Assembly: GCA_963750945.1 (NCBI GenBank)
Contig: CAVVSH010000015.1
Coordinates: forward strand, 554,215-618,214
DNA: 64,000 nt
Source of the DNA: an uncultured Actinomycetota bacterium
Lineage (GTDB): Bacteria; Actinomycetota; UBA4738; HRBIN12
Direction: 5' to 3'
Positions within the stretch are counted from its first letter, which is position 1. Each line of letters opens with the position of its first letter. The notes beneath the pieces are model-generated. The model was not told where the DNA came from. It did no database searches and saw only the letters and a list, made by a program, of their open reading frames with translations. Both the position numbers and the translations under genes were made by a program. Below are positions 7,065-26,217 of this stretch, piece after piece.

Positions 7065-7071
7065 GAGCGCC

Positions 7072-9319: not shown

Positions 9320-10704
9320 GCCTCCAAGGTAGCAGCCGGCTCGCCGGTTCCCTCGCCGAGGGTTCGGAGGAAGAGCGCCTCGGCGAGCGCGATGTGCTCG
9401 ATCTCGGACAGGTCGACGCTCTCGTTCACGGAATGGATGAACGAGCGTTCGTCCATCGCGCCCCAGATCAGGATCTCCATGCCAGGGAACGTCTCGGTGA
9501 GCATCGGGACCAGAGGGATCGATCCTCCCGAGCCCACCTCGATCGGGTCGCGCCCGTACGCCCGCGCGAGAGCGTCCATCGCCGCGCGGCTCGCGGGCGT
9601 CGACGTGTCGACCAGGTAGCCGTGTCCTGCTTCGAAACCGGACGCTCCCTCGAACGTCACCTCCACGCCCCAGGGGGCGTGGGCCCGGAGATGGTCCACG
9701 AGCGCCTCGCGTGCCGCGCCGGGATCGTCACCCGGCGCGAGCCGGAGGCTCACGCGGGCGCGAGCGACCGGCACGATCTGATTCGACGAGCCGGCGATCG
9801 CCGGCGCGTCGACGCCCAGCACGGCGACGGCGGGGGAGGACAGCAGACGGTCCGCGATCGTGCCCGACCCGATCAGCTCCACCGAGTCGAGGACACCCGA
9901 CTCATCGCGGAACTCGTCTTCGGGCAGCTGCGCGCCCTCCCACTCGAACCGCTTCAGACCTTCGATCGCGACGTCGCCCTCGTCCGTGTGCAGCGAGGCG
10001 ATCATCCGCGCGAGCGCCGTGATCGCATCCGGGATCGGTCCTCCGTACGCCCCCGAGTGCTGGGCACTCGGGAGGACGCGGACCTGCACCACGATGTCGG
10101 TCACCCCTCGGATCGAGGTGTTCATCGTCGGGACGCCGGTCCGGTAGTTGCCGCCGTCGGCGATCACGGCGACGTGCGCCCGCAGCAGATCGGCGTGGCC
10201 TTGGACGAGGTCGGGCAGATGCTCGGTCGAGCACTCCTCCTCGCCTTCGACGACGACCTTGATCGTCACCGGAGGTTCGCCGTCGGCGAGCAGGGCGCGG
10301 ATCGCCGCCGCGTGGACGACGATGCCGCTCTTGTCGTCCGCGGCCCCGCGCCCGTACATGCGTCCGTCATTCACCACCGGCTCGAACGGAGGCGTGTCCC
10401 ACTGGTCGACCGGACCCTCGGGCTGCACGTCGTGATGCGCGTAGAGCAGGACCGTCGCCGCGCCGTCGGGTCCGCGGATCTCACCGAAGACCGCCGGGTG
10501 TCCACCGTCCAGCTCCAGCAGGCGGGCGTCCTCCACGCCGGCCTCCCGCAGGATGTCTCTGGTCGTCTCGGCCGAGGCCCGGACATCGGCCGGGTCGTAG
10601 CCCGGGTAGCCCATCGACGGGATTCGTACGAGCCGCTCGAGCTCCGCGATCGTGCGCGGCATGTCGGCCGCGATCCGTTCGCGGAGTGTCTCGTCCTCGC
10701 TCAT
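9316..10704 (-). CDS. M20 family dipeptidase/peptidase
   Basis: M20 metal-ligand motifs (HHDVQP, GRGAADDKSG, EGEEE) plus a dimerisation domain. Confidence 0.8.
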   Translation of the reverse strand: MSEDETLRERIAADMPRTIAELERLVRIPSMGYPGYDPADVRASAETTRDILREAGVEDARLLELDGGHPAVFGEIRGPDGAATVLLYAHHDVQPEGPVDQWDTPPFEPVVNDGRMYGRGAADDKSGIVVHAAAIRALLADGEPPVTIKVVVEGEEECSTEHLPDLVQGHADLLRAHVAVIADGGNYRTGVPTMNTSIRGVTDIVVQVRVLPSAQHSGAYGGPIPDAITALARMIASLHTDEGDVAIEGLKRFEWEGAQLPEDEFRDESGVLDSVELIGSGTIADRLLSSPAVAVLGVDAPAIAGSSNQIVPVARARVSLRLAPGDDPGAAREALVDHLRAHAPWGVEVTFEGASGFEAGHGYLVDTSTPASRAAMDALARAYGRDPIEVGSGGSIPLVPMLTETFPGMEILIWGAMDERSFIHSVNESVDLSEIEHIALAEALFLRTLGEGTGEPAATLEA

Positions 10705-10723
10705 GGGCTGCGAAGCCTACCGG

Positions 10724-11341
10724 CTAGGGCGAGAGCCGCCGGATCGACCAGCCGCCGTCCGTCCGTTCGTACAGGAAGCGGTCGTGGAGCCGGTGCTGAC
10801 GGCCCTGCCAGAACTCGACGGTGATCGGCTCGATCCGGTAGCCCCCCCAGAACGGCGGTCGCGGCACGTCATCGCCCGGATACCGGGCATCGAAGGCGGC
10901 GAACCGCTCCATCAGCTCGTCTCGGGACGCCAGCTCGGCGCTCTGTCGCGAGGCCCACGCTCCCAGGCGCGCCTCGCGCGGGCGGGTCGCGAAGTAGGCG
11001 TCGGACTCCTCCGCGGGGACCCGGGAGACGTCGCCGGAGACGGAGATCTGCCGGTCGATCTCTCGCCAGTAGATCGAGAAGGCAGCCCGTGGGTTCTCGT
11101 CGAGCTCCGACCCCTTCCGACTTCCGTGGTTCGTGTAGAAGACGAATCCCCGGTCCTCGATCTCGCGGAGCAGCACATGACGGATGGACGGACGTCCGTC
11201 GGACGCCGCGGTCGCGAGGGCGATCGCGTTGGGGAGACGGATGCCCGCGCGCTCCGCATCCTCGTACCAACGCCGGAACAGCACGACCGGTTCGGAAGGG
11301 AGGCTCTCGAGCTCCAGCGGCAGGTCGTGCTCGGCGCCCAC
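10724..11341 (-). CDS. pdxH: Pyridoxamine 5'-phosphate oxidase
   Basis: PNPOx FMN-binding motifs (RHVLLRE, FYTNHGSRKG) and the C-terminal WGGYRIEP...EFWQGR...RLHDRF signature. Confidence 0.85.
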   Translation of the reverse strand: MGAEHDLPLELESLPSEPVVLFRRWYEDAERAGIRLPNAIALATAASDGRPSIRHVLLREIEDRGFVFYTNHGSRKGSELDENPRAAFSIYWREIDRQISVSGDVSRVPAEESDAYFATRPREARLGAWASRQSAELASRDELMERFAAFDARYPGDDVPRPPFWGGYRIEPITVEFWQGRQHRLHDRFLYERTDGGWSIRRLSP

Positions 11342-11345
11342 GGCG

Positions 11346-11417
11346 CGCCCCCGGCAGGATTCGAACCTGCGCCCCCGGCTCCGGAGGCCGGTGCTCTATC
11401 CCCTGAGCTACGGGGGC
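11346..11417 (-). tRNA. tRNA-Arg (anticodon CCG)
   Basis: Reverse complement GCCCCCGTAGCTCAGGGGATAGAGCACCGGCCTCCGGAGCCGGGGGCGCAGGTTCGAATCCTGCCGGGGGCG folds as a cloverleaf: 7-bp acceptor stem, D-arm GCTC/GAGC, anticodon stem CCGGC/GCCGG with loop CTCCGGA, T-arm GCAGG-TTCGAAT-CCTGC. CCA is not encoded. Confidence 0.8.
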
Positions 11418-11486
11418 TCGGGTCCGGAAGTCTAGCAACCGGCCTTCTGATGCTTTGGGCGACGTCGGCCGGGCTATCCTCGGCGC

Positions 11487-11867
11487 GTGTCCTCGTCAGA
11501 CTCACCTCGGGTCCTGTTCGCCGACGACGATCCGATCCTGCACCGACTTCTCCAGGTCAACTTCCGTGCGGTCGGGATCACGATCGACTCGGTGGGACGC
11601 GGCGACGACGCGCTCGTACGCGTGATCGCGGCCCCCCCCGATGCGCTCGTCCTGGACGCGACGATGCCGGGGATGGACGGCCACGAGGTCTACCAACGCC
11701 TCCGGGAGGAGCCGGCCCTCGCCTCGCTCCCGGTGATCTTCCTCACGGGGCGCGGCGCCGAGGAGTTCGAGGCCTACGCGGGGGAGCACGTGACGGTCGT
11801 GACGAAGCCGTTCGACCCCACGGAGCTCGTGAAGATCGTGTGCGAGGCGATCGGGGTGAGCGGGTGA
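11487..11867 (+). CDS. Single-domain response regulator (CheY-like receiver)
   Basis: Receiver-domain residues (DD near the N-terminus, phospho-acceptor D in LVLDATMPGMDG, T/K downstream). No output domain. Confidence 0.75.
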   Translation: MSSSDSPRVLFADDDPILHRLLQVNFRAVGITIDSVGRGDDALVRVIAAPPDALVLDATMPGMDGHEVYQRLREEPALASLPVIFLTGRGAEEFEAYAGEHVTVVTKPFDPTELVKIVCEAIGVSG

Positions 11868-13552
11868 TCGAGGACCGGCTGAAGGACCTGCTCAACGACG
11901 CGGTGACGGTGGCTGCTTCCGCGCTCGGACAGGAGCCTCCCTACCCCGAGCCCGAGCTCCAACGGCCCCGCCAGAAAGAGTTCGGCGACTTCACCACCAA
12001 CCTCGCGATGGTCGTCGCATCGCAGGCGGGCGCGGATCCACGGGCGACGGCGACAGCGATCGTGAACGCGCTGCCCGCCGCGCCCTTCCTCGAGAAAGCC
12101 GAGGTGGCAGGGCCCGGCTTCATCAACCTGTGGACGACCGATGAGTGGCTCCACGACGTCCTGCGGCAGATCGTCGGAGAGGGCGACCGATACGGCGCCG
12201 GTCGATCGACCGGCCGGCGGATCCAGGTGGAGTTCGTCTCCGCGAATCCGACGGGCCCTCTCACGATCGGCCACGCCCGGAACGCCGCGATCGGCGATGC
12301 GCTCGCCCGGCTGTTGACGTTCGCAGGGCACGACGTGGAACGCGAGTACTACTTCAACGATGCCGGCGGGCAGATGGACCGCTTCGGGGCCTCCGTCGAG
12401 GCTCGGTACCTGCAGCTCCTCGGTCGTGATGCGGAGATGCCCGAGGACGGCTACCACGGCGACTACGTCGCGGAGCTCGCGCGCGAGATCCTGGACATCG
12501 AGGGACCGAGCCTCGCCGATCTGCCCCCGGAAGAGCGGCTCATCCGACTCCGGGAGGAGGGCGCGCGGCGCGCGATGGAGCAGATCCGAGCCACCTTGGA
12601 GCGGTTCGGCGTCACCTTCGATTCGTACTTCCTCGAGGCGTCGCTCGTGGAGAAAGGCGAGATCGCGCAGGCGATCGAAACGCTGCGCGAGGCCGGTTTC
12701 GTCTTCGACGCGGAGGGCGCCACCTGGTTCCGGTCGACCGCGTTCGGCGACGACAAGGACCGCGTGGTGGTGCGGTCGGACGGGACGCACACGTACTTCG
12801 GGGCGGACATCGCCTACGTCCTCGACAAGTTCTCGCGCGGTTTCGATCACCTGGTCTACGTGTGGGGCGCCGACCACCACGGCGACATCGCGAGGGTGAC
12901 GGGCGCCGCGACGGCGCTCGGCTTCGACCCCGAGCGCGTCGAGATCGTGATGTACCAGTTCGTCTCGTTCCTGCGCGGAGGCCAGCCCGTGAAGATGAGC
13001 AAGCGGGCCGGGACGTTCGTCTCGCTGGACGAGCTGATCGACGAGGTGGGCACCGACGCCGCCCGCTTCCACCTGCTCCTGTTCTCCAACGACCGGCCGA
13101 TGAACTTCGACATCGCCGAGGTCGCCCGGCAGACGCTCGACAATCCCGTCTACTACGTGCAGTACGGGCACGCGCGGATCGCGTCGATCCTCCGCAAGGC
13201 CGCCGCGGAGGGGATCGCGCTCGGACCGATGGAGGACGCCGACCTGACGCTGCTCGCGTCCGAGCCGGAGCAGGAGCTGCTCCGGGCGCTGGCCGACGTC
13301 CCGGGCCTGATCGCGACGGCCGCGGAGCAACGCGCGCCGCACCGGTTGACCCATGCGGCGCAGGACCTCGCGGCCACGTTCCATCGCTTCTACACGGAGT
13401 GCCGCGTGGTCTCCGATGACGCCGCCCTGACACAGGCACGCTTGTGGCTTTCGTCGGGCGCGAAGCAGGTCCTTTCGAACCTCCTCGGGCTCCTGGGCGT
13501 CTCTGCCCCCGAGTCGATGGAGAGGATGGACGACGCGCGGCCGGATGGGTGA
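11864..13552 (+). CDS. argS: Arginine--tRNA ligase
   Basis: HIGH-type motif (ANPTGPLTIGHARN), KMSKR (PVKMSKRAG), and a DALR anticodon-binding C-terminus. GTG 11864 overlaps the upstream stop as GTGA. Track ORF 10652..13552 is this gene plus a spurious 5' extension. Confidence 0.9.
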   Translation: MIEDRLKDLLNDAVTVAASALGQEPPYPEPELQRPRQKEFGDFTTNLAMVVASQAGADPRATATAIVNALPAAPFLEKAEVAGPGFINLWTTDEWLHDVLRQIVGEGDRYGAGRSTGRRIQVEFVSANPTGPLTIGHARNAAIGDALARLLTFAGHDVEREYYFNDAGGQMDRFGASVEARYLQLLGRDAEMPEDGYHGDYVAELAREILDIEGPSLADLPPEERLIRLREEGARRAMEQIRATLERFGVTFDSYFLEASLVEKGEIAQAIETLREAGFVFDAEGATWFRSTAFGDDKDRVVVRSDGTHTYFGADIAYVLDKFSRGFDHLVYVWGADHHGDIARVTGAATALGFDPERVEIVMYQFVSFLRGGQPVKMSKRAGTFVSLDELIDEVGTDAARFHLLLFSNDRPMNFDIAEVARQTLDNPVYYVQYGHARIASILRKAAAEGIALGPMEDADLTLLASEPEQELLRALADVPGLIATAAEQRAPHRLTHAAQDLAATFHRFYTECRVVSDDAALTQARLWLSSGAKQVLSNLLGLLGVSAPESMERMDDARPDG

Positions 13553-14054
13553 AGCACTCGAGATCCGGCCCGCGAGACCCAGCGACGCTCGCGCCTTCCT
13601 CGAGCACTGGACCGCGATCGTGACCGAGGAGCGGTTCGTCAGGAGCGAGGAGGTGCAGACGTCGGCCCGAGCGTATCGACGGCGCTTCCGCCAGCGGTCG
13701 GACCTCGAGACGAACCTGCTCGCGTTCGAAGGCGGACGACTCATCGGTCATGTCACGGTGCAGCGCGACCGTCATCCGGTCACGCGGCATGTCGGGTCGC
13801 TCGCGATCGCGGTGGCAGCCGACGCCCGCGGACGGGGCATCGGACACCGGCTGATGGTCGAGGCGATCGCCTGGTCGAAGCAGGCGGGGGTCGAGAAGAT
13901 CGTCCTCTCCGTGTATCCGCACAACGACGCCGCGATCGCGCTGTATCGGAGCTTCGGGTTCGTCGAGGAGGGGAGGCTCGCGAGGCACTCGCGCAAGTCC
14001 TACGGTTACGAGGACGAGATACTCATGGCGGCCTGGATCGGGAGCGACGGGTGA
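13545..14054 (+). CDS. GNAT family N-acetyltransferase
   Basis: Acetyl-CoA binding motif A (RGRGIGHRLM) with the GNAT fold. Confidence 0.75.
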   Translation: MGEALEIRPARPSDARAFLEHWTAIVTEERFVRSEEVQTSARAYRRRFRQRSDLETNLLAFEGGRLIGHVTVQRDRHPVTRHVGSLAIAVAADARGRGIGHRLMVEAIAWSKQAGVEKIVLSVYPHNDAAIALYRSFGFVEEGRLARHSRKSYGYEDEILMAAWIGSDG

Positions 14055-15364
14055 CGGCGGACGGATCGAACGAGGCGGTCGAGCGGACGGTGCGCATCGG
14101 CCTCCTCGGGAGCGGCAACGTGGGCGCGGCCGTGCTCCGGCTGCTGCACGAGCACGGGGACGACGTGGCTCGCCGGGCGGGCGTGCATCTGGACGTCGCC
14201 CGGGTCGCCGTGCGCGATCCCGGCCGAGACCGAGGGGTACCGCTGCCACCCGACCGCTTCACCGACGACGCCGGCGCCGTCGTCGACGACCCAGGGATCG
14301 ACATCGTTTGCGAGTTGATGGGGGGTGTCGAGCCCGCACGCGGGCTGCTCTTGCGTGCGTTGGCGAGCGGGAAGTCGGTCGTGACCGCCAATAAGGAGCT
14401 CCTGGCGACCCACGGGGATGAGCTCTTCTCCGCGGCGGACCGGGCCGGCGGGGATCTCTACTTCGAAGCGGCGGTGGCGGGAGGGATCCCGCTGATCCGT
14501 CCCTTGCGCGAGTCTCTCGCCGGGGAGCGCGTCGATCGCGTCCTCGGGATCGTGAACGGGACGACCAACTTCATCCTGACGCAGATGTCGGAGCACGGCT
14601 GGACCTCCGAGGAGGCGATCGCCGAGGCACAGCGGCTCGGGTTCGCCGAGGCCGACCCCACCGCCGACGTCGACGGGTACGACGCGGCCGCGAAGTGCGC
14701 GATCCTCGCGTCGGTGGCGTTCGGGGCGCGTGTGGTCGCCGACGACGTCTATCGGGAGGGCATCTCGGAGGTCACGCCGCAGGACTTCGAGGACGCGGCT
14801 CGGCTCGGCTACGTGATCAAGCTGCTCGCGATCGCGGAGCTCGATGAGGAGGAGATCTCGGTCCGCGTCCATCCGTCGATGATCCCGATGGAGCACCCGC
14901 TCGCGGCCGTTCGCGGGGGCTCCAACGCGGTCTTCGTCGAGGGCCCGAAGATCGGACAGCTGATGTTCTACGGCGCCGGCGCGGGCGGGGACCCGACCGC
15001 GACCGCCGTCGTCGGGGACCTCGTGAGCGTCGCGAGGAACCTCCTGCAGGGTGCGCGAGGTCCCAGCTCGGCGCCGACCAACGCGCGGCGCGTTCGCCCC
15101 ATGGACGACACGCACGACCAGTACTACCTCAAGCTCCGCGTCGACGATCGACCCGGCGTGCTGGCGGAGATCGCCGACCGCTTCGGGCGGAACGGCATCT
15201 CGCTCGAGCGTGTGTGGCAGGAGGGCACCGGTGAGGAAGCCACGCTCTCGTTCATCACGCATCGCGCCCAGGAGGGCGCGTTTCAGAAGACGATGCAGGA
15301 GCTTCGGGAGCTCGATGCCGTCCACGCGGTCGCGAGCGTCATCCGCGTCGAGGGCGAGGAGTGA
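14051..15364 (+). CDS. hom: Homoserine dehydrogenase
   Basis: N-terminal NAD-binding GLLGSGNVG, a catalytic domain, and a C-terminal ACT domain. GTG start overlaps the upstream stop. Confidence 0.9.
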
Positions 15365-16446
15365 CCTCCTTGGAAGGGACACCGTCCGGGGACGGAGCGC
15401 CGCAATGGCGAGGCATCATCGAGGAGTACCGCACGCGGCTGCCGGTCTCCGTCGACACACCAGTCGTCACGCTCCGTGAAGGCGGCACGCCGCTCGTTCG
15501 ATCCGACGTCCTGTCGGCCGAGACCGGCTGCGACGTCTGGCTGAAGTACGACGGCACGAACCCCACCGGGTCGTTCAAGGACCGGGGGATGACGCTCGCG
15601 ATCTCGAAGGCGCTCGAGGAAGGGGCCAAAGCTGTCGTCTGCGCGTCCACCGGCAACACGAGTGCGAGTGCGGCGGCGTACGCGGCGAAAGCAGGTCTGA
15701 CGTGCGCCGTGCTCGTGCCCAAGGGGAAGATCGCGCTCGGCAAGATGGCCCAGACGCTCGTGCACGGGGCCCGGGTGCTCGAGGTCGACGGCAACTTCGA
15801 CGCGTCGCTCGAGCTCGCGAAAGGTCTCGCGGACCGGTACCCGGTGACCTTGGTCAACAGCGTGAACCGGTACCGGCTGGAGGGTCAGAAGACGGCGGCG
15901 TTCGAGATCTGCGACGCGCTCGGTCGACCTCCCGACCTGCACCTCGTCCCGGTCGGAAACGCGGGCAACATCTCCAGCCACTGGCTCGGCTACACGGAGT
16001 ACCTGGAGGCCGGCATGATCCACGACCCGCCCCGCCTCTTCGGGTTCCAGGCCCAGGGGGCGGCGCCGATCGTGCTGGGTGAGGTGGTGAAGGATCCGCA
16101 GACGATCGCGACCGCGATCCGGATCGGCAACCCGGCCTCCTGGGAGAAGGCGGTCGCGGCCGCGAAGGAGTCCGAGGGCGCGATCCTCGCGGTGACCGAC
16201 CGCGAGATCTTGGCTGCGTACCGGCGCGTCGCCCGCGAAGGGCTGTTCGCGGAGCCCGCATCGGCCGCGAGCGTGGCCGGGCTGCTGCACCTGCACGCCG
16301 AGGGCAAGCTCGCGGCCGATGCGACGGTGGTGTGCGTCCTCACCGGTCACGGGCTGAAGGATCCGGAGTGGGCGATCGCGGGAGCGGCGCGGCCGGAGAC
16401 CGTGCCGGCCGACCCCGCGGTGGTCGCCGCCGAGCTGGGGCTGTAG
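15361..16446 (+). CDS. thrC: Threonine synthase
   Basis: PLP-lysine motif (TGSFKDRG) and TGNTSAS in a short-form ThrC. Confidence 0.9.
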
Positions 16447-17334
16447 ATGCGCATCACCGTCCGGGTGCCGGCCACGTCGGCGAACCTCGGTCCGGGGTTC
16501 GACTGCTTCGGGCTCGCGCTCGACCTCTGCAACGAGGTCACGGTCGACACCGACGCCGAGCCCGGTGTCTCGTGGGAGGGCGAGGGGGCGGACGAGCTCC
16601 CGACCGACGGCTCCGACATGGTCAGCCGCGCGATCGCGTTCGCGCTCGGACAGCAGCTCCACTTCTTCCCGAGCGCTGCCCTTCCTTCGTTCTCCTTGCA
16701 CGGCATCAATCGGATCCCACTGGAGCGCGGGCTGGGGTCATCGTCTGCGGCTGCGGTCGCGGGGGTCGCGCTCTGTCGGAGTCTGCTCGGCGAGGCTGGA
16801 GGCGGCGACGACCCCCACACGACGTTCGCGTATGCGGCGGAGCTGGAGGGGCATCCGGACAATGCGGCCCCCGCTGCCTACGGAGGCCTCACGGTGATCG
16901 CTCCGGGCTCCTACGTGCACCGCTTCGAGCCGCACCGTGACCTCGATCCGGTGGTGGTCCTGCCGGATCGGCTCCGACTCGCGACCGGGGAAGCGCGCGC
17001 CGCCCTCTCCGACACGGTCGACCGGCGTGACGCCGTCTTCAATATCGGGCACGCCGCCCTCGCCGTCATGGCGTTCACACGCGAACCGGATCTCCTTCTC
17101 GTGGCCCTGCACGATCGTCTCCACGAAGACGCACGGGGAACCCTGGTTCCCGAATCGGCGGCGCTCCTCCACGATCTCCGCAGCCGGCAGATTCCCGCGT
17201 GCCTGTCCGGCGCCGGTCCATCGCTGCTCGCCTTCCAGCACGAGGGACATGCGATCGGCGAGTTGCCGGAGGGCTGGCGCGCGATCCGGCCCGGCGTTCG
17301 ATCGATGGGTGTCGAGGTGCAAGTCGAGGGCTGA
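16447..17334 (+). CDS. thrB: Homoserine kinase
   Basis: GHMP kinase motif PATSANLGPGFD at the N-terminus and GSSSAA. Confidence 0.9.
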   Translation: MRITVRVPATSANLGPGFDCFGLALDLCNEVTVDTDAEPGVSWEGEGADELPTDGSDMVSRAIAFALGQQLHFFPSAALPSFSLHGINRIPLERGLGSSSAAAVAGVALCRSLLGEAGGGDDPHTTFAYAAELEGHPDNAAPAAYGGLTVIAPGSYVHRFEPHRDLDPVVVLPDRLRLATGEARAALSDTVDRRDAVFNIGHAALAVMAFTREPDLLLVALHDRLHEDARGTLVPESAALLHDLRSRQIPACLSGAGPSLLAFQHEGHAIGELPEGWRAIRPGVRSMGVEVQVEG

Positions 17335-17342
17335 GCTCAGCC
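17329..17342. terminator. Perfect 14-bp palindrome GGCTGAGCTCAGCC. It contains the convergent stop codons of thrB and the MarP-like gene and could act as a bidirectional hairpin.
   Basis: Seen directly: tga at 17332-34 on the + strand and tca (complement of tga) at 17337-39 both lie inside the palindrome. No U-tract follows, so any terminator function is speculative. Confidence 0.2.
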
Positions 17343-18500
17343 GACGCACCGACCCGTGCGGACCTCGGCGGTGCGAGCCGTCGCCCGGTCGACCAGCGGG
17401 ATCAGTCTCGGGGAGGTGATCGCGTAGCCGAGGTCCTCGTTCGTGACGGATGCGCCGAAGATCAAGCCCGCGACCTGCCCACCGGGCAGCACGAACGGCC
17501 CGCCGCTGTTCCCGGGCTTGACCGTGGCCTGCAGCTCGTAGATCCGCCGCCGAGCCTCTTCCTCCGAGTAGATGTCTCGACCGACCGCATCCAACGCGCG
17601 TCGGACCGCCGCCGGGAGCTCCGTGTAGCCCCCGTGTGGATATCCCACGACGGCCCCGCCGGTGCCTCGTGCGACCTCCTCGGTGAGCAGGTCGAGCGGG
17701 GGCGCATCGAGACCTTCGACCCGGAGGACGGCGGCGTCGAGGTCTTCGTCGAAGAGCACCGGCACCGCGTCGAAGACCTGGCCCTTCCACTCCACCCGGG
17801 GGCTGCTGCCGGCGATCACATGAGCGTTCGTGAGGACGAGGTCATCTTCGACCACGAAGCCGGTCCCCTGGAGGATCCGATCGCACGCCGGTCCGGCGAC
17901 CAGGACGATCGAGGGACGCGCCGCCCTCGCCGCTCTCGCGGCGAGACCCTGCGGCGGCTGCGGTACCGGGTCGGCGGGCAGCGGAGGCAGGCCCGAGAAG
18001 ACGTCCGGGAAGCCGATGATGTCGAGTACGTTCCCCAGCTGCGCCGCGAGGGCCGGTGGTGGCGGGAGCGCCGTGTCGACGACCCGGATCACGGCCGAGC
18101 GCTGGAGCGATCGAGCGATGGAGGGGAACGGCCCCGCCGCCAGGTTGAGGCCGAGGAACCAGATCGCGAGGATGAGCGCGCTCACGCTGAGCGCCCCGCC
18201 TCCCACCGCATCCGCCGCCTTGAGCCGGGTTCCCCGGGTTCGCCGACGGAGCCTGAGCCCCAGGACCGAACCGACCGCGTCGCCGATCGCGCCGAGGAGA
18301 AGCACCGTCCCCAGGGCCACGCCCGCCTTCGCCGGATCCGACCGGACGAGGTCGGCAGTGAGGGGCGCGAGCCGGATGCCGACGACGAATCCGATCCCCA
18401 GTCCGACGAGCCCGGCGACCTGAAGCACCGCGCCGCGTCGATAGCCACCCCAGGCCGACAACACGAACAGCAGGAGGAGGACGACGTCCAAGACGGTCAC
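17337..18500 (-). CDS. MarP-like membrane-anchored serine protease (CvpA family 4-TM domain fused to a trypsin-like S1 domain)
   Basis: N-terminal four TM helices (CvpA-like), then an S1 protease with His (LTNAHV), Asp (DAAVLRV) and Ser (GNSGGP) motifs. Same architecture as mycobacterial MarP (Rv3671c). Confidence 0.7.
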   Translation of the reverse strand: MTVLDVVLLLLFVLSAWGGYRRGAVLQVAGLVGLGIGFVVGIRLAPLTADLVRSDPAKAGVALGTVLLLGAIGDAVGSVLGLRLRRRTRGTRLKAADAVGGGALSVSALILAIWFLGLNLAAGPFPSIARSLQRSAVIRVVDTALPPPPALAAQLGNVLDIIGFPDVFSGLPPLPADPVPQPPQGLAARAARAARPSIVLVAGPACDRILQGTGFVVEDDLVLTNAHVIAGSSPRVEWKGQVFDAVPVLFDEDLDAAVLRVEGLDAPPLDLLTEEVARGTGGAVVGYPHGGYTELPAAVRRALDAVGRDIYSEEEARRRIYELQATVKPGNSGGPFVLPGGQVAGLIFGASVTNEDLGYAITSPRLIPLVDRATARTAEVRTGRCVG

Positions 18501-18578
18501 GGGTCGCTATCGTCCCATGCGCCTTCGTGTCTCCAGGCAGTCTCGTCGACGGATGTCGGCGCCCCCTACACTGCCGAC

Positions 18579-19406
18579 GTGGTCACGATCGCCCACATCT
18601 CCGATCCGCACGTCGGTTCCCCCCACTTCGTGCCGAACCTCCTCCATCGGGTGATCGAGGAGATCAACGAGCTGGAACCCACGGCGGTGATCTGCAGTGG
18701 AGACCTCACCACCGACGGGTATCGACAGGAGTATCAGTCGTGGCTCTCGTACGCGGAGCGGATCCAGGCACCTCTCCACACGATCCCGGGCAACCACGAC
18801 TCGCGGAACGTCGGCTACCTACACTTCGAGGAGCTGATCGGTGCACGCAACTGGTCCGTGGACGTAGAGGGGATCAGGATCGTGGGTGTGGACTCGAGCG
18901 AGCCCGACCTGAACGAGGGGATGGTGGGCCGGGGCCATTACTCGTGGATCCGGAAGCAGTTCGCCGAACCGGCGGATCTCAAGGTGTTCGTGCTGCACCA
19001 CCACCTGATCCCGATCCCCGGCACTGGACGAGAGCGCAGCACCGTGATGGACGCGGGAGACCTGCTCGAGGTGCTCGTCCACTCGGGCGTGCACGTGGTG
19101 CTCGCAGGACACAAGCACGTTCCCTACGTCTGGCGGCTCGAGGACATGTACCTGGCGAGCGCCGGCACCTGTTCGTCCCTCCGCGTGCGAGGGCACACCA
19201 AGCCCTGCTACAACGTGTTGGAGATCGAGGGCGGGAAGGTCACGATCTTCCGGAAGTTCCCGTTCGGCGAGCGCCAGCAGATGGCCAAGGTCGCGATCGC
19301 CACGGGGACCCAGATGCAGCGCGAGGGCGAGGGTTTCATCCAGGAGTCCGCGCCCGTATCGGATCAGGTTGCCGATCAGGTGGCCGAGCCCGTTCCCGGC
19401 GACTGA
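18579..19406 (+). CDS. Metallophosphoesterase (calcineurin-like)
   Basis: Motifs IAHISDPH, GDLT, GNHD, VLHHH and GHKH. In-frame GTG at 18579. Track ORF 17199..19406 carries a long spurious 5' extension antisense to the MarP-like gene. Confidence 0.7.
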   Translation: MVTIAHISDPHVGSPHFVPNLLHRVIEEINELEPTAVICSGDLTTDGYRQEYQSWLSYAERIQAPLHTIPGNHDSRNVGYLHFEELIGARNWSVDVEGIRIVGVDSSEPDLNEGMVGRGHYSWIRKQFAEPADLKVFVLHHHLIPIPGTGRERSTVMDAGDLLEVLVHSGVHVVLAGHKHVPYVWRLEDMYLASAGTCSSLRVRGHTKPCYNVLEIEGGKVTIFRKFPFGERQQMAKVAIATGTQMQREGEGFIQESAPVSDQVADQVAEPVPGD

Positions 19407-19457
19407 CCGCCGACCCGTTCCCACTCCATCGACACGGCCAACACCAGGAGAACGCAC

Positions 19458-20792
19458 ATGCGAACGCTCGCCCTCGTGGACGGTGAGCACTACCCGCCGG
19501 TGACGCGTGCCGCCTTGGAAGCGGCAGGGGAGCGCGGCCACGAGATCGTGGCCGCGCTCCTCGTCGGTGGGACCGAGAAGCTCGCTGCCGGCGACGCTCC
19601 ACCCGACCTCGGCGTCCCCGTCCTCGTCACGGCCGGCGGACGCATGGACGCGTTGCGGACCGCGATCGCCGAGCTGTCGCCCGAGGTGATCCTCGATCTC
19701 TCCGACGAACCGGTCCTCGGGTATCGCGAGCGGATGGAGATGGTGGCAGTCGCCTTGGTGGCGGGGGTGCCCTATCTCGGCCCCGACTTCCGGATCGACC
19801 CACCAGAGCTCGCCGCCCCGCTCGGCATCGCGACGCTCGCGGTCATCGGCACCGGGAAACGGACGGGCAAGACCGCGATCGCCGGGGCGGTCGCTCGCCT
19901 GGCGGCCCGCCGCGGTCTGGAGCCGGTCGTCGTCGCGATGGGCCGCGGCGGGCCGCCGGAGCCCACCCTCGCGATGGCCGGTTCGGTCGACCTCGACCAG
20001 CTCGTTCGGCTGGTCGCCGAGGGGCAGCACGCGGCGTCGGACTACCTGGAGGACGCCATCACGACCGGCGTGACCACGGTGGGTGCCCTGCGCGCCGGCG
20101 GCGGGCTCGCCGGCGCGCCCTACGTGTCCAACGTCAGGGAGGCCGCCGAGCTGGCAGCCTCCCTCCACCCGGGGCTGGTGATCCTCGAGGGGAGCGGAGC
20201 GGCGATCCCGCCGGTGCCGTGGGACGCGGCCATCCTGGTGGTGCCCGCCACCGCCCCTCCGGAGTACCTCGGCGGCTACCTCGGCCCGTACCGGCTCTTG
20301 CGGTCCGATCTGGTGGTTGTTACCATGACAGGCGACCCATCCGGGTCCGAAAACCTTTCCGCGCTCCGGTCCCCTGTTCGGCGCTACCTGGACGATGCGG
20401 CGTTCATCCTGACGGACTTCGTTCCGGTAGCGCTGGAAGATATCCGGGGCAAGGAAGCGTTCTACGCTACGACTGCTCCTCCAGGGGTGGTCGAGAGGCT
20501 GATCCGACGCCTCGAAGCCGACCATGGGTGCACGGTCGTGGGCTGGAGCGCTCGACTGGCGGATCGCGCCGGTCTGGTCGAAGACCTCGATGCCGTCCAG
20601 GGATACGACGTCCTCCTCACGGAGCTGAAGGCGGCGGCCGTCGATACGGCGGTCGCCAGAGCCCTCGACCGAGGGGCGGAGGTCGTGTTCGTGGACAACC
20701 GCGCAGAGGCCGTGGAGGGATCCGCGGACCTCGACACCGCGCTCGGCGGCGCGATCGACATCGCGCTCGACCGGGCAGAAGACCGCTTATGA
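19458..20792 (+). CDS. Cyclic 2,3-diphosphoglycerate synthetase-like protein
   Basis: About 444 aa with a P-loop (GTGKRTGKT) and the overall length and composition of archaeal cDPGS. The call is supported by translational coupling (ATGA) to a clear 2-phosphoglycerate kinase. Confidence 0.55.
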   Translation: MRTLALVDGEHYPPVTRAALEAAGERGHEIVAALLVGGTEKLAAGDAPPDLGVPVLVTAGGRMDALRTAIAELSPEVILDLSDEPVLGYRERMEMVAVALVAGVPYLGPDFRIDPPELAAPLGIATLAVIGTGKRTGKTAIAGAVARLAARRGLEPVVVAMGRGGPPEPTLAMAGSVDLDQLVRLVAEGQHAASDYLEDAITTGVTTVGALRAGGGLAGAPYVSNVREAAELAASLHPGLVILEGSGAAIPPVPWDAAILVVPATAPPEYLGGYLGPYRLLRSDLVVVTMTGDPSGSENLSALRSPVRRYLDDAAFILTDFVPVALEDIRGKEAFYATTAPPGVVERLIRRLEADHGCTVVGWSARLADRAGLVEDLDAVQGYDVLLTELKAAAVDTAVARALDRGAEVVFVDNRAEAVEGSADLDTALGGAIDIALDRAEDRL

Positions 20793-21739
20793 CGAGAGAC
20801 CAACACCCACACCCACACATCACGATCTCCGACCAAGATCCCGGCCTGCCCTACTCCAAGGGTCTGATGGCCTCACAGGTCATGGTCACGGGGCTCTCCG
20901 CCTATCGCGCCTATGAGGTGGCGGAGACGATCGAGATCCGTTTGCTGGACGAGGACAGGTCTTCGATCAACAGCATCGAGCTCTCCGATTTCGCCCTCGA
21001 CATCATCAGGGAGCTCGCGGGAGATCGCTACGCGACCAACTTCGCGCGCTGGCAAGACGTGCAGCGGCTGGACGTGCCGCTCGTGATCCTGATCGGCGGT
21101 GCCACCGGCGTCGGGAAGTCCACGATCGCCACGCACCTGGCGCACCGGCTCGGGATCGTGCGCGTCGTCGCCACGGATGGCTCGATCCGAGAGGTGATGC
21201 GGTCGATGCTCTCCGCCGAGCTCATGCCGACGCTCCACGTCTCGTCGTTCCAGACGGACACCGTCGTTCGGGAACCGACGCGCCGTTCCGACTCGCTGGT
21301 CGCAGGCTTCCGGGAGCAGACGGCGGCGGTCTCGGTCGGGATCGAAGCCCTGATCAAGCGCTCGGCCGCCGACGGGACGAGCATCGTGATCGAAGGCGTC
21401 CACGTGGTCCCGGGATTCTTCGACCTGGAGGTCCACGGTGAACGCATCGTGCCCGTTCCCTTGATCGTCGAGGTCGACGAGGAAAGCCGACATCTGACTC
21501 ATTTCGCCGCCCGGGAAACGGGCGTCCGTCCGGCCGAGCGTTACGCGCAGAACTTCGAGAACATCAGGAAGCTCCAGCGCTACGTCAAGAGCCAGGCGCT
21601 CTCCCACGGTGTGCCGATCGTGCCGAACCACAGCTTCGATCAGGCGATCTCGGCGGTGCTCGACCTGGTGATGGAGCGTGCGACCGCGCGGGCCGCGCAG
21701 CACGCGGACGAGCTCGGACGACAGGGGAGGACCGCGTGA
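20789..21739 (+). CDS. 2-phosphoglycerate kinase
   Basis: P-loop ILIGGATGVGKSTIATHLAHRLGI typical of the 2PGK family, with an N-terminal regulatory region and a length of about 316 aa. Confidence 0.65.
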   Translation: MTRDQHPHPHITISDQDPGLPYSKGLMASQVMVTGLSAYRAYEVAETIEIRLLDEDRSSINSIELSDFALDIIRELAGDRYATNFARWQDVQRLDVPLVILIGGATGVGKSTIATHLAHRLGIVRVVATDGSIREVMRSMLSAELMPTLHVSSFQTDTVVREPTRRSDSLVAGFREQTAAVSVGIEALIKRSAADGTSIVIEGVHVVPGFFDLEVHGERIVPVPLIVEVDEESRHLTHFAARETGVRPAERYAQNFENIRKLQRYVKSQALSHGVPIVPNHSFDQAISAVLDLVMERATARAAQHADELGRQGRTA

Positions 21740-22389
21740 GACTGTTCCTGGACACGGCCAGCATCGACGAGATCCGCGAGATCAACCGGTGGGGCGTGCT
21801 CTCCGGCGTCACGACCAACCCGTCGCTCGTCGCGAAGGAGGGTGGCGATCCGGAAGCGGTCTGGAAGGAGATCCTCGCGGAGGTCGACGGCGACATCTCG
21901 CTGGAGACCACGGAGCTCGAGGCCGGGCCCATGTACGAGCAAGGGCAAAAGCTCGCGGGCATGGCGCCCAATGCGGTCGTGAAGGTCCCGATGATCCCCG
22001 CGGGCTTGGAAGCCGGGAAGCGGCTGGCCGGCGAGGGGATCCGGGTCAACGTGACACTCGTGTTCTCGGCGGCGCAGGCGATCTTGGCGGCCGAGATCGG
22101 GGCGTACTGCGTCTCGCCGTTCCTCGGCCGGTTGGACGACGTCGGCTCCGACGGGATGAAGCTCCTGCACGACATCTGCGAGATCTACGCGGTGCAGGGC
22201 TACGCCTCGAACGTGCTGGCGGCCTCACTGCGCCATCCCATGCATGTGGTGGAATCCGCGCTCGCGGGAGCGGACATCGCCACGATGCCGTACGACGTCT
22301 TCACGAAGCTCGTGAAGCACCCATTGACTGACTCCGGACTGGAGCGATTCCTCGCCGACTGGCGGACGCTTCAGGACGAACAGCCCTAG
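21736..22389 (+). CDS. Fructose-6-phosphate aldolase / transaldolase family (Fsa/TalC, about 217 aa)
   Basis: Start MRLFLDTASIDEI, Schiff-base lysine context (VKVP) and short-type transaldolase length. GTG start preceded by GGGGAGG. Confidence 0.8.
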   Translation: MRLFLDTASIDEIREINRWGVLSGVTTNPSLVAKEGGDPEAVWKEILAEVDGDISLETTELEAGPMYEQGQKLAGMAPNAVVKVPMIPAGLEAGKRLAGEGIRVNVTLVFSAAQAILAAEIGAYCVSPFLGRLDDVGSDGMKLLHDICEIYAVQGYASNVLAASLRHPMHVVESALAGADIATMPYDVFTKLVKHPLTDSGLERFLADWRTLQDEQP

Positions 22390-22411: not shown

Positions 22412-24106
22412 ATGGACACCATGGACCGCAGCACCTTGGAGGGGAAGCTCCTTCCGGAGCTGCAGCAGATCGCGCAGACGATGGGGATCGAAGGATCCCA
22501 GCGTCTGCGCAAGGCAGGCCTGATCGACGCGATCGTCGAGGCCTCGTCGAACGGAGAACGACCGGACAACGGCGAAGCGTCGGCCCGTCCGTCCCGTGAG
22601 ACGGCCGTCGCGACCATCGACGGCGCCACCGGCGACGGCGCGACGACCGACATCTCGTCGGACGAGGGCACCGAGAACGACGCGGACGGCTCGTTCGCCG
22701 AAGCCTCGGACGAGCAGCAGCCGTCGGACCGTCGTCCGGGTGGCGAGGACCGCCAGCCGGACGACCGCGCGAGCGGTCCCGGTAGCTCGCGGCCCCAGGA
22801 CCGCGGCGAGCGGAACCAGGACCGCGGCGGCCCCCAGGACCGGGGCGACCGCGGGGACCGCGGTGAGCAAGGGGATCGCAACGACCCCCGCAACCGGCGA
22901 CGCCGTCCAACCCGCGAGGAGCGGCGGCAGCAGCGAGAAGAGCGCCGGGAACGCGAGGAGCAGGAGCGGGTCGAAGCGCTGAAGACCGCCCCGTCGGCGG
23001 CCGGCATCCTCGACCTGCTCCCCGATGGCTACGGCTTCATGCGGACCTCGGGCTACCTGCCCGGTCCCGACGACATCTACGTCTCGATGTCCCAGGTGCG
23101 CAAGCACCAGCTGCGCAAGGGCGACGTCGTGACGGGCAAGGTGCGCCAGCCGAAAGACAGCGAGAAGTATTGGGCGCTCCTCGAGGTCGAGAAGGTCAAC
23201 GACGTCGGGGTCGATGACGTCAAGGAGCGGAGGAACTTCGACAAGCTCACGCCGTTGTTCCCCGACGATCGGTTCCGACTGGAATCCGGCCCGACCGCGG
23301 TGACCGAGCGGATCATCGACATGATCGCGCCGATCGGGAAAGGCCAGCGAGGGATGGTCGTGTCTCCGCCCAAGGCGGGGAAGACCACGGTGCTCAAGCA
23401 GATCGCGAACGGCATCATTAACTCGAGCCCGGACACGCACGTGATCGTGCTGCTCGTCGACGAGCGGCCGGAGGAGGTCACGGACTGGCAGCGCACCGTC
23501 GAAGCCGCCGAGGTCGTCTACTCCACGTTCGACAAACCGACCGACCAACACATCCAGGTGACGGAGCTCGTCCTCGAGCGCGCCCGGCGTCTCGCCGAAT
23601 CCGGCAGGGACGTGGCGGTCATCCTCGACTCGATCACCCGTCTGGCCCGTGCCTACAACCTGGCGGCGCCGTCCTCGGGCAAGATCCTGTCGGGCGGTAT
23701 CGACTCCGGTGCCCTCTACCCGCCGAGACGGTTCTTCGGCGCGGCGCGCAACATCGAGGAGGGCGGATCCCTCACGATCATCGCGAGCGCGCTGGTCGAG
23801 ACCGGATCCCGGATGGACGACGGCATCTTCGAGGAGTTCAAGGGAACCGGGAACATGGAGCTCCGGCTCGATCGTTCATTGTCGGAGAAGCGGTTGTTCC
23901 CCGCGATCAATGTCGACGCCTCGGGAACCCGCAAGGAAGAGCTGCTGATGCCGGCCGAGGAGCTCGCGCTGGTGATCAAGCTGCGGCGAGTGCTCCACGC
24001 GCTCGACGTGGGAGCTGCTCTGGAGCTGCTGGTCGACAAGGTCAGGGCGACCAAGTCGAACGAGCAGTTCCTCAAGGAGATCGCCAAGGCGCCGTCCGGG
24101 GGATAG
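22412..24106 (+). CDS. rho: Transcription termination factor Rho with an actinobacterial N-terminal RD/RG-rich insertion
   Basis: Rho N-terminal domain, a low-complexity R/D/G/E-rich insert of about 150 aa, an OB-fold RNA-binding domain, and a RecA-type ATPase ([15 protein letters not shown]). Confidence 0.9.
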
Positions 24107-24167: not shown

Positions 24168-24395
24168 ATGAAACAGGGCATCCACCCCGAATACCAGATC
24201 GCCAACGTCCACTGCTCGTGTGGCAATACGTTCCAGACCCGCTCCACCGTGAGCGAGATCCGCGCAGAACTCTGCTCGAACTGCCACCCCTTCTACACCG
24301 GCAAGCAGAAGTTCGTGGACGCGGGCGGCCGTGTCGAGCGGTTCCAGCGGCGGTACGCGAAGACCCAGGCGGCCCAGCAGGCGCAGCAGGGCTAA
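24168..24395 (+). CDS. rpmE: 50S ribosomal protein L31 (zinc-binding type)
   Basis: MKQGIHPEY start with two CxxC pairs (CSCG and CSNC). Confidence 0.9.
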
Positions 24396-24402
24396 CCGAC
24401 CC

Positions 24403-25323
24403 GTGGCGGAGGCAGCGGCCCCCAAAGCGGCGTCCCCGCGCAGCCATCTCTATGGCGGTCAGGCGGTCGTCGAGGGCGTGATGATGCGCGGCGCCGGGTT
24501 CTGGGCGATCGCCGTCCGTAAGCCGGATGCGACGATCCACGTCGAGTCGCACGAGATCGACTCGATCGTGCTGCGTTATCCGCTCCTCGGCAAGCCCTTC
24601 TTCCGGGGCATCATCGTGCTCGGGCAGTCGCTCGCGATCGGCATGCGTGCGTTGATGGTCTCGGCCAACCAATCGCTCGAGGAAGAAGACCGGCTCACTC
24701 CACGGCAGGTCGCGCTCTCGATCGTCCTCGCGCTGGCGCTGTTCATCGGGATCTTCATCATCGCGCCGACGACGCTCTTCGCGTGGTTCGAGAATCGCAC
24801 GGGCGGCGGCGGCGTCCTCACGCTGATGGGCGAGGGTGTCTTCCGTGTCGCGCTCTTCGTCGCCTATCTGTGGTTGATCGGCAAGACCAAGGACATCCAT
24901 CGGGTGTTCGAGTATCACGGGGCCGAGCACAAGACGATCGCTGCCTACGAACACGGCGAGGAGTTGCAGGCGGATCTGATCGATCGATACCCCAAAGAGC
25001 ACGTCCGCTGCGGGACCAACTTCCTCATCATCGTCATGATCATCACGATCTTCGTGTTCACGCTCTTCGGCACCCCGGCGCTCATCTGGCGGATCGTCTC
25101 CCGGGTGATCGCCATCCCGATCATCGCCGCCATCTCCTACGAGGCGCTGCGGTTCGGCGCGAAGCACCCGGGGTCGCTCCTCATGCGAGCATTGATGACA
25201 CCGGGGATCTGGCTGCAGAAGATCACGACCCAGCAGCCCGACCGATCCCAGATCGAGGTCGCGGTCACGTCCTTCCAGGAGCTGCTCCGCCGCGAGGCGG
25301 AGGCGACTGCGCCCGAGCGCTAG
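24403..25323 (+). CDS. DUF1385 family membrane protein (YqhQ-like)
   Basis: Conserved YGGQAVVEGVMMRG N-terminal block and multi-TM body. In-frame GTG at 24403 just after the rpmE stop. The track start at 24331 would overlap rpmE. Confidence 0.65.
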   Translation: MAEAAAPKAASPRSHLYGGQAVVEGVMMRGAGFWAIAVRKPDATIHVESHEIDSIVLRYPLLGKPFFRGIIVLGQSLAIGMRALMVSANQSLEEEDRLTPRQVALSIVLALALFIGIFIIAPTTLFAWFENRTGGGGVLTLMGEGVFRVALFVAYLWLIGKTKDIHRVFEYHGAEHKTIAAYEHGEELQADLIDRYPKEHVRCGTNFLIIVMIITIFVFTLFGTPALIWRIVSRVIAIPIIAAISYEALRFGAKHPGSLLMRALMTPGIWLQKITTQQPDRSQIEVAVTSFQELLRREAEATAPER

Positions 25324-25428
25324 CGGTCGAGATCCCCCGGCCCGAGGACGCAGTTCGCGTCAGGTCGTTGCATCGCTCGTTTCTTGCGCGAAGATGATGC
25401 GGTTCCCCATGACTCGGGAGGTTTCCCC

Positions 25429-26217
25429 ATGCCGACCAGCGACCTGGATATGCCGTTGCTGCCGAGCGCGGAGCAGATCCGCCGCCGAGAGTTCGCAACG
25501 GTTCGTCGCGGCTACGACCCGCAGCAGGTGCGCGCCTACCTGACCTCGATCGCGAACCAGGTGGGGACGCTGGAGCAGGAGCTCAGCCAGCTCCGCCTCG
25601 AAGTGGGATCGTCGGCGGCCGCGAGGAGCGAGCAGATGGCCGGCCCGGCGATGGGCGAGTCCGCCGCCGCGTCTGATGCGTCCTCTTCCGCCGACCCGTA
25701 CGACGCGTTGTCCAAGCGCTTCGCCACCCTGATCGAGATGGCGGATCAGGAAGCCGACCGGATCCTCGAGAACGCGAGATCCGAATCGACCCGAGCGCTC
25801 GACGAAGCGAGGAGCGAGGCCGACCGCATCAGGGTTGATGCGCAGGCGCACGCGGAGGAGGCTCGTCAGGAGGGCACGGATCTGCTGGAGCGAGCCAAGA
25901 CCGAATCCGATCGGCTCTTGATCGGTCTCGCTGAGCGTCGACGGGGTCTCGTCGCCCAGCTGGAGGAGATGCGCGGGAAGCTCATCGAGGTGGCGGACGA
26001 TCTCGCCGTCCCGATCGAGGAGGCCGCGCGCGCAGACGCGGAGGACGACGATCTCGCGGGCACGGCCACCGACGCCACCGATGACGCGGGCGCCACCGAT
26101 GCTGCGGAGACGCCCGTCGATCCTCGATACGAGGCTCTCTGGGTGCAGAAGGACGAGTCGCTGCAGATCCCGGACCTCGCGTCGATCGACCTGGAGTTCG
26201 ACGAGCCCGACGAGTAG
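25429..26217 (+). CDS. DivIVA domain-containing protein
   Basis: N-terminal DivIVA motif (EFATVRRGYDPQQVRAYL) followed by coiled-coil and an acidic tail. ATG 25429 preceded by GGGAGG. Confidence 0.65.
   Translation: MPTSDLDMPLLPSAEQIRRREFATVRRGYDPQQVRAYLTSIANQVGTLEQELSQLRLEVGSSAAARSEQMAGPAMGESAAASDASSSADPYDALSKRFATLIEMADQEADRILENARSESTRALDEARSEADRIRVDAQAHAEEARQEGTDLLERAKTESDRLLIGLAERRRGLVAQLEEMRGKLIEVADDLAVPIEEAARADAEDDDLAGTATDATDDAGATDAAETPVDPRYEALWVQKDESLQIPDLASIDLEFDEPDE

Follow-up and report, generated by a model that had tools for sequence, protein, structure and literature searches.

Introduction

The archaeal 2-phosphoglycerate kinase (2PGK) has been characterised in M. fervidus. For the synthetase of cyclic 2,3-diphosphoglycerate (cDPG) from the same organism, cDPG synthetase (cDPGS), structures (8ORK and 8ORU) and ligand contacts are available (PMC10690619), and in M. 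thermautotrophicus both a cDPG hydrolase activity and a role of cDPG as a carbon and phosphate store have been reported (PMC1224877). Recent papers describe cDPG as exclusive to hyperthermophilic methanogens (PMC10690619), and it is currently regarded as an extremolyte, under commercial development. Here we analyse a 64,000-nucleotide stretch of DNA from an uncultured Actinomycetota bacterium (contig CAVVSH010000015.1, assembly GCA_963750945.1), hereafter the window. Positions 18567–22389 of the window probably form an old, vertically inherited operon of four genes, encoding a metallophosphoesterase (MPE), a cDPGS homologue, a 2PGK homologue and a transaldolase, whose products would make and mobilise cDPG. 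A preliminary description of the region, made without database searches, had placed a cDPG biosynthesis cassette here and had interpreted it as an acquired insertion into a conserved actinobacterial gene order.

The cDPG synthetase homologue

The gene at 19458–20792 (+ strand; stop codon at 20790–20792) starts with ATG behind an AGGAGA ribosome-binding site and encodes a protein of 444 residues. A phmmer search of the PDB matched this protein to 9SXB (E-value of 1.1e-89, query residues 4–419) and to the M. fervidus structures 8ORU and 8ORK (4.7e-88), with residues 3–439 aligning collinearly to residues 6–454 of the chain. The likeness to 9SXB and to M. fervidus cDPGS (8ORK/8ORU; PMC10690619) therefore covers the full length and takes in the N-terminal dimerisation domain found in this family alone, whereas identity is ∼43–45% and the gene here is bacterial, with 71% GC. 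Scanning Pfam and NCBIfam gave no match for the protein, which we attribute to library copies seemingly without the newer PF27272, and not to absence from the family; its homologues carry precomputed matches to this Pfam model (CpgS_N).

Ligand-contacting residues were taken from the description of the M. fervidus enzyme (PMC10690619) and transferred through the PDB alignment. Nine of the ten mappable residues are kept, including every contact to 2,3-diphosphoglycerate (2,3-DPG) and Mg2+. M. fervidus E45, K46, K145, R146, K149 and T150 correspond to E40, K41, K134, R135, K138 and T139 here, and D208, T353 and E404 correspond to D195, T339 and E389, all of them retained. The 2,3-DPG-binding set comprises K134 and R135 together with E40 and K41, whose M. 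fervidus counterparts (E45 and K46) are contributed by the partner subunit, while K138, T139 and D195 are the P-loop and Mg2+ residues. Among the adenine and ribose contacts, T339 and E389 are kept, E305 is replaced by G292 with D293 adjoining, and P335 is off the numbering of the paper.

The P-loop, GTGKRTGKT (19848–19874, + strand; residues 131–139), includes the 2,3-DPG-contacting K134 and R135 and follows the pattern GTGKR(T/I)GKT shared with the M. fervidus enzyme. Across 53 diverse representatives of the family, K134, R135, G137, K138 and T139 are invariant, and the other retained ligand residues, D195 among them, are invariant or near-invariant. On this full-length match and these retained residues, the protein is assigned to the cDPGS family, as first supposed, and is predicted to form cDPG; the profile searches pointed neither to another P-loop family nor to a loss of the cDPGS catalytic residues.

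The synthetase is widely distributed. One genome per GTDB species was scanned with a 12-sequence alignment, which revealed a cDPGS relative in the genomes of at least 508 species of bacteria and archaea; the synthetase is also encoded in thousands of metagenomic protein clusters. The best 80 loci were analysed, of which 79 belong to metagenome-assembled genomes (MAGs) of Actinomycetota and one to a Methanopyri archaeon. The Actinomycetota loci come from Acidimicrobiia, Euzebyaceae, Ca. Aquicultor, Actinomycetes-labelled and unclassified MAGs.

The 2-phosphoglycerate kinase homologue and gene coupling

The gene that follows (20789–21739, + strand) encodes 316 residues, and its ATG overlaps the cDPGS stop codon as ATGA. 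The protein matches the 2PGK model NF003259 from end to end (3.5e-82, 276.2 bits; residues 10–306 to model positions 5–300 of 306) and contains the Walker A motif GATGVGKS (21098–21121, + strand; residues 104–111), with P-loop Pfam matches at residues 97–140. In both respects it resembles archaeal 2PGK (NF003259/COG2074), from which it differs in scoring under the 343-bit equivalog cut-off of the model. Given an alignment over the full model but a score below the cut-off, we assign it as a member of the 2PGK family, in agreement with the preliminary description, and not as a proven functional orthologue; 2-phosphoglycerate kinase is its putative function. The model for mevalonate-3-phosphate 5-kinase (NF008996) scored 67 bits, about one-quarter of the 2PGK score. 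Other bacterial 2PGK homologues that neighbour cDPGS reach 281–352 bits on NF003259, with one of them (locus L085, 352 bits) above the cut-off, and homologues adjoining cDPGS carry precomputed ATP-cone matches. We found no solved structure of the 2PGK family for comparison.

Overlap of the two genes recurs across loci, with cDPGS and 2PGK overlapping in 47 of 74 (median gap of −4 nt) and 2PGK and the transaldolase gene (tal) overlapping in 54 of 60 (median gap of −4 nt). Downstream, tal and rho are adjacent with short gaps in 43 of 48 loci, as judged from heuristic start calls. These recurrent overlaps, with ATGA and GTGA at the two junctions in the window, bear out the translational coupling noted earlier.

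Adjacency of cDPGS and 2PGK is also retained in five rearranged bacterial contexts (L084, L085, L086, L088 and L089). The order in L084, away from the thr and rho genes, is MPE-cDPGS-2PGK-GlpX, the last being a fructose-1,6-bisphosphatase. L085 has 2PGK-cDPGS-ApgM-CBS, and here ApgM, the phosphoglycerate mutase that makes 2-phosphoglycerate (2PG), scores 440 bits on TIGR00306 against a cut-off of 320 bits. A double-MPE fusion follows cDPGS-2PGK in L086, from a LigA-bearing bacterium, and a double MPE follows cDPGS-2PGK-CBS in L089, whose contig also carries the gene of a protein with a Por_Secre_tail (type IX secretion-sorting) domain; from this domain we read L089 as an FCB-group (Bacteroidota-like) bacterium. 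L082 has MPE-cDPGS-2PGK-tal-rho, and a transaldolase stands behind cDPGS-2PGK only in the thr/rho context. In the archaeal loci, cDPGS is solitary among unrelated neighbours (L078, 8001–9350, a Methanopyri MAG; L090, 8001–9389, Methanothermobacter, AP011952), with neither 2PGK nor MPE beside it, whereas here it is coupled to 2PGK with MPE in front. Judged by these two archaeal loci, the operon arrangement seems to be a bacterial trait. The overlaps and the recurrent adjacency together point to 2PGK and cDPGS working in one pathway.

The metallophosphoesterase and its upstream hexamer

The MPE gene (18579–19406, + strand; 275 residues, GTG start) opens the operon. Its product matches Pfam Metallophos (PF00149) at 5.1e-19, and all five metal-binding motifs (DxH, GD, GNHD, H and GHxH) are present. 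The closest solved relatives, the class-III metallophosphoesterases GpdQ (2ZO9 and 2DXL) and Rv0805 (2HY1), share these binuclear-metal motifs but match with E-values of only ∼1e-11, and MPE forms a distinct subfamily with five conserved arginines. In an alignment of 57 sequences, the residues D9, G41, N72, H73, D74, H140, H141, G177, H178 and H180 are at least 95% conserved, as are the arginines R76, R118, R151, R153 and R204, which suit a polyanionic substrate. The protein has no transmembrane or hydrophobic segment.

A −10-like hexamer, TACACT (18567–18572, + strand), lies 6 nt before the GTG start of MPE. In 44 of 49 loci (in the range L001–L062), TA[N]ACT ends 6–10 nt before the MPE start codon, while it is absent from the other 44 upstream nucleotides of those loci, where the sequence is otherwise unalignable; no Shine-Dalgarno sequence precedes the MPE start codon. 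We consider that TACACT probably acts as a promoter, from which a leaderless transcript of the operon would start at MPE. A sigma-70 scan of 17–24.5 kb showed no promoter-like site, its consensus being ill-suited to actinobacterial TAnnnT promoters, and matches in a terminator scan of the same region were at chance level.

The median gap between MPE and cDPGS is 34 nt across loci, with an overlap in L082 and in L084. The L084 MPE, which lies outside the thr/rho context, is 61% identical to the MPE of the window, while cDPGS of L084 is 46% identical. Fusions of two tandem MPE domains (∼500 residues) are encoded downstream of 2PGK in L086 (8272–9792) and L089 (8733–10232). By its conserved hexamer, its short gap and its recurrence with cDPGS-2PGK, MPE belongs to the cDPGS-2PGK unit. 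The cassette accordingly begins at MPE, and not at 19458 as in the preliminary description, which had missed this membership.

The cDPG hydrolase activity is, as far as we know, still without an assigned gene, and the neighbourhood of MPE makes it a candidate cDPG or 2,3-DPG hydrolase. The proposed likeness to the M. thermautotrophicus hydrolase would lie in phosphoanhydride or phosphoester cleavage of cDPG or 2,3-DPG, with neighbourhood as the only link, and the two differ in that the archaeal activity is membrane-bound while MPE is predicted to be soluble.

The transaldolase

The last gene of the operon (21736–22389, + strand; 217 residues) belongs to the TAL/FSA family, with its GTG start overlapping the 2PGK stop codon as GTGA and a GGGGAGGA site in front. 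The protein scores 264 bits on TIGR00875, passing the cut-off of 246, and this model spans both transaldolase and FSA activities. Against solved transaldolases (1WX0, 1VPX and 3R8R) it scores 226–238 bits, and against E. coli FSA ∼110 bits. Residues D6, E57, K83, T107 and F129 stand where FSA has D6, Q59, K85, T109 and Y131; the E. coli FsaA sequence in this comparison is one we take to be correct, its key residues falling at the published positions. In bit scores and catalytic residue pattern, the protein resembles the short transaldolases of T. thermophilus (1WX0), T. maritima (1VPX) and B. subtilis (3R8R), and it differs from E. coli FsaA (1L6W) in lacking Gln59 and Tyr131. We rule out an FSA aldolase, with Glu57 and Phe129 in place of Gln59 and Tyr131 and with the nearest solved proteins all being transaldolases. 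These residues make the earlier label ‘Fsa-type aldolase’ unfit, and the protein is about twofold closer to transaldolases than to E. coli FSA. It is classed from sequence as a short (subfamily-4-type) transaldolase and is probably the ordinary pentose-phosphate enzyme of the cell, carried on the same transcript.

Inheritance of the operon

Throughout the 79 Actinomycetota loci, the order hom-thrC-thrB-(marP)-(MPE)-cDPGS-2PGK-(tal)-rho-...-prfA persists as cDPGS identity drops to 43–50%. The identity of cDPGS to that of the window correlates with the identity of its neighbours (Spearman coefficients of 0.96 for hom, 0.91 for thrC, 0.88 for 2PGK and 0.86 for prfA). The GC content at third codon positions (GC3) is 0.85–0.91 in the cassette and 0.83–0.90 in the flanks, and overall GC is likewise similar, so that the comparison of composition proposed in the preliminary description revealed no deviation in either measure. 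In the window, flanking repeats were at chance level, and neither integrase or mobility genes nor an adjacent tRNA were found.

In a neighbour-joining tree, bootstrap support is 97% for the clade of the window, 98% for Acidimicrobiia, 95% for Nitriliruptoria and 100% for Methanobacteriales (88% with Methanopyri included). The window clade is not nested inside the archaeal clade, which goes against the archaeal origin that had been supposed, while the deep branches have 2–8% support. With this weak backbone, an ancient inter-domain transfer is possible in either direction, and the family may have arisen first in Archaea or in Bacteria.

The conserved position, flank-like GC3, correlated divergence and supported shallow clades lead us to regard the cassette as old and as inherited vertically with the chromosome in many uncultured Actinomycetota. 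We reject a recent genomic island on the flank-like composition, the lack of mobility signs and a position kept in 79 loci, all fetched through cDPGS; the same observations, with divergence that tracks hom, thrC and prfA, contradict the ‘inserted’ and ‘acquired’ status given to the cassette at first.

Habitat and temperature

According to their record titles, the relatives among the best 80 loci are mostly MAGs from soil, pasture and groundwater surveys. A cultured carrier was sought with a Euzebyaceae homologue, and only MAG names were among the matches. Methanobacterium and Methanobrevibacter are mesophilic genera, and species of both are among the closest relatives of M. fervidus cDPGS (67–73% identity; P0412–P0528), so the archaeal gene is not confined to hyperthermophiles. 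With such habitats and such archaeal homologues, a heat-protection role is unlikely, and the acquired thermoadaptation suggested earlier finds no support.

Growth temperature was also estimated from the IVYWREL fraction, which at 0.42 gives ∼58 °C by the Zeldovich relation, an unreliable value drawn from 50 crudely called, mostly housekeeping open reading frames (ORFs), some of them spurious. The value disagrees with the soil and groundwater sources of the relatives, probably through the bias of a housekeeping-gene sample, and we discarded it as evidence either way.

Genomic surroundings

Five genes occupy the interval between thrB and rho: marP, MPE, cDPGS, 2PGK and tal. The marP-family protease gene (17337–18500; NF033740, 342 bits) is transcribed from the minus strand, away from the other four. 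The count of five intervening genes first given is correct, although marP does not run with the rest. The three ORFs from cDPGS to tal likewise lie where they had been placed, with their ATGA and GTGA overlaps, and domain and profile matches agree with the flanks as named before (argS, hom-thrC-thrB and rho to atp). Upstream, the series is argS (within the ORF 10652–13552), a GNAT gene, hom (14051–15364), thrC (15361–16446), thrB (16447–17334), marP and MPE. Downstream, rho (22412–24106, + strand; Pfam Rho_N, Rho_RNA_bind and ATP-synt_ab) is followed by rpmE (24168–24395), a DUF1385 gene, a DivIVA-like gene, prfA, prmC, tsaC, a low-molecular-weight phosphatase gene, glyA, a GT4 (rfe-like) gene (31168–32409) and the atp operon. 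We treat rho as context and not as a component of the pathway; its ATG is 22 nt past the transaldolase stop codon, and it may be co-transcribed with the transaldolase gene.

The window has a GC content of ∼69%, and its real genes have a GC3 of 0.8–0.9. Long ORFs on the + strand at 17199–19406, 20219–21739 and 10652–13552 overshoot the true MPE, 2PGK and argS starts upstream, and one of them crosses marP in antisense. All are artefacts of high GC content and a trap for naive ORF calling. An Rfam scan of the window found a single tRNA and no rRNA.

Two features of the surroundings differ from the mycobacterial arrangement as we take it to be. A GNAT acetyltransferase gene (13545–14054) lies between argS and hom, with no lysA seen there, the position that lysA presumably occupies in mycobacteria. 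A DUF1385 membrane protein (24331–25323) and a DivIVA-domain protein (25384–26217) are encoded between rpmE and prfA, which we assume to be adjacent in the mycobacterial order. Behind its N-terminal domain, Rho has a long insertion (residues ∼45–190) of low complexity, in which Arg, Asp, Glu and Gly abound, and the 22-nt gap in front of its gene leaves almost no leader. On the minus strand, an M20 peptidase gene (9316–10704) overlaps at its end with the gene for a bacterial proteasome activator (Bpa, PF10759; 8795–9319). The presence of Bpa suggests a proteasome-bearing actinobacterium.

Elsewhere, the thr clusters of L068 and L082 lack thrB and encode an ApgM-like metalloenzyme after thrC (6306–7673 and 1577–2752, respectively). 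Its top model is NF003242 (cofactor-independent phosphoglycerate mutase), with TIGR02535 (proposed homoserine kinase) a close second, which suggests a non-orthologous replacement of thrB. We had considered these genes as a link to the supply of 2PG and dropped them as such, since they score best as the thr-operon type; among the ApgM genes, that of L085 alone is counted as a link of this kind.

Discussion

From the homology, the ligand residues, the coupling and the synteny, we infer with moderate confidence that positions 18567–22389 are an old, vertically inherited operon of four genes (MPE, cDPGS, 2PGK and transaldolase) serving a cycle that would make and mobilise cDPG. A leaderless transcript would start at MPE and run on towards rho. 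The kinase would convert 2PG and ATP to 2,3-DPG, and the synthetase would use a second ATP to close 2,3-DPG into the cyclic pyrophosphate cDPG; the synthetase is likely dimeric, in which case E40 and K41 of one subunit would complete the site of its partner. MPE would most likely reopen or dephosphorylate cDPG or 2,3-DPG, so that carbon and phosphate flow back into central metabolism. The product may serve as a phosphate, carbon and energy reserve and/or as a general stress protectant (osmotic, desiccation or oxidative), and not as a thermoprotectant; we favour such a reserve or stress role because the carriers come from apparently mesophilic habitats. A more far-reaching version is possible but doubtful, namely that MPE, cDPGS and 2PGK form the full cDPG cycle with MPE as the hydrolase, that this cycle is ancestral to Actinomycetota or of great age in them and occurs in other bacterial phyla too, and that cDPG is a widespread phosphate and energy reserve or stress solute.

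Several observations weigh against our reading of the operon. The kinase falls short of its curated cut-off, and its family (COG2074) includes a kinase of another substrate, mevalonate-3-phosphate 5-kinase. In the synthetase, the ADP-contacting E305 of M. fervidus is Gly292, albeit with Asp293 next to it. In the Acidimicrobiia-type loci and in the two archaeal ones, no MPE is encoded up to 8 kb from cDPGS, from which we take it that MPE is not obligatory or is encoded elsewhere. The loci were fetched through cDPGS itself, and genomes lacking it fall outside the sample. The IVYWREL estimate gives mesophily no positive support. The archaeal cDPG hydrolase is described as membrane-bound, whereas MPE has no hydrophobic segment, and cDPG is stated to occur only in methanogens (PMC10690619), with the bacterial family members known from sequence alone.

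These points bear unequally on the alternatives. That the enzymes keep their folds and perform other chemistry, making or recycling, together with MPE, a different phosphorylated small molecule or stopping at 2,3-DPG as a cofactor or regulator without accumulating cDPG, would fit the low kinase score, the NF008996 match within COG2074, the lack of bacterial cDPG in the literature found (PMC10690619) and the presence of a hydrolase in the same operon, which could hold the steady-state level low. We consider this unlikely, as all 2,3-DPG contacts of the M. fervidus synthetase are kept and invariant in the family, the 2PGK model outscores the mevalonate-3-phosphate kinase model about fourfold, the L085 kinase passes the cut-off beside ApgM, and the neighbours GlpX, ApgM and Tal indicate C3 and sugar-phosphate metabolism. 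Somewhat more credible, while still the lesser possibility, is that MPE and the transaldolase are housekeeping neighbours by position, sharing a transcript and having no part in cDPG metabolism. The likeness of MPE to generic class-III phosphodiesterases is weak, and MPE is not beside cDPGS in Acidimicrobiia-type loci or in archaea; the transaldolase is missing from the same loci. Yet the MPE subfamily accompanies cDPGS-2PGK in at least three contexts outside thr/rho (upstream in L084, and downstream as a fusion in L086 and L089), and in L084 it is better conserved than cDPGS. For the transaldolase, with its probable pentose-phosphate function, a merely positional association is quite likely.

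A recent insertion of an archaeal cDPG cassette into the actinobacterial gene order, conferring thermo- or osmoadaptation, was the interpretation from which this analysis started. It draws on the mycobacterial order, in which we take thrB to stand immediately before rho, and on the enzymes here being clear homologues of the only characterised pathway, which is archaeal (PMC10690619). We now regard it as highly improbable. The composition is that of the flanks, with no repeats, integrase or adjacent tRNA; different classes of Actinomycetota share the location, even where cDPGS identity falls to 43%, with divergence of cDPGS following that of the neighbouring housekeeping genes; the window clade, at 97%, lies outside the archaeal clade in a tree with deep branches at 2–8%; and soils and groundwater are the sources of the relatives.

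The gene call itself is not new, since annotation pipelines have already named thousands of MAG proteins cDPG synthetase. In the literature found, we saw no mention of bacterial cDPGS or cDPG, and for this reason we count the locus, a predicted bacterial instance of the known cDPG pathway, as new. The occurrence of the pathway as an operon inherited vertically across the phylum, and the MPE that goes with it, seem not to have been described before.

If these operons are active, the ecological range of cDPG and its presumed role in heat protection would need revision, and large groups of uncultured soil Actinomycetota would hold a hitherto unconsidered pool of phosphate and carbon. MPE would then be a concrete candidate for the cDPG-degrading enzyme, and the family would offer enzyme variants, of likely mesophilic origin, for biocatalytic cDPG production. 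Should the MPE-cDPGS-2PGK cycle prove true, cDPG would be no curiosity of hyperthermophilic methanogens but a solute of abundant soil and groundwater bacteria.

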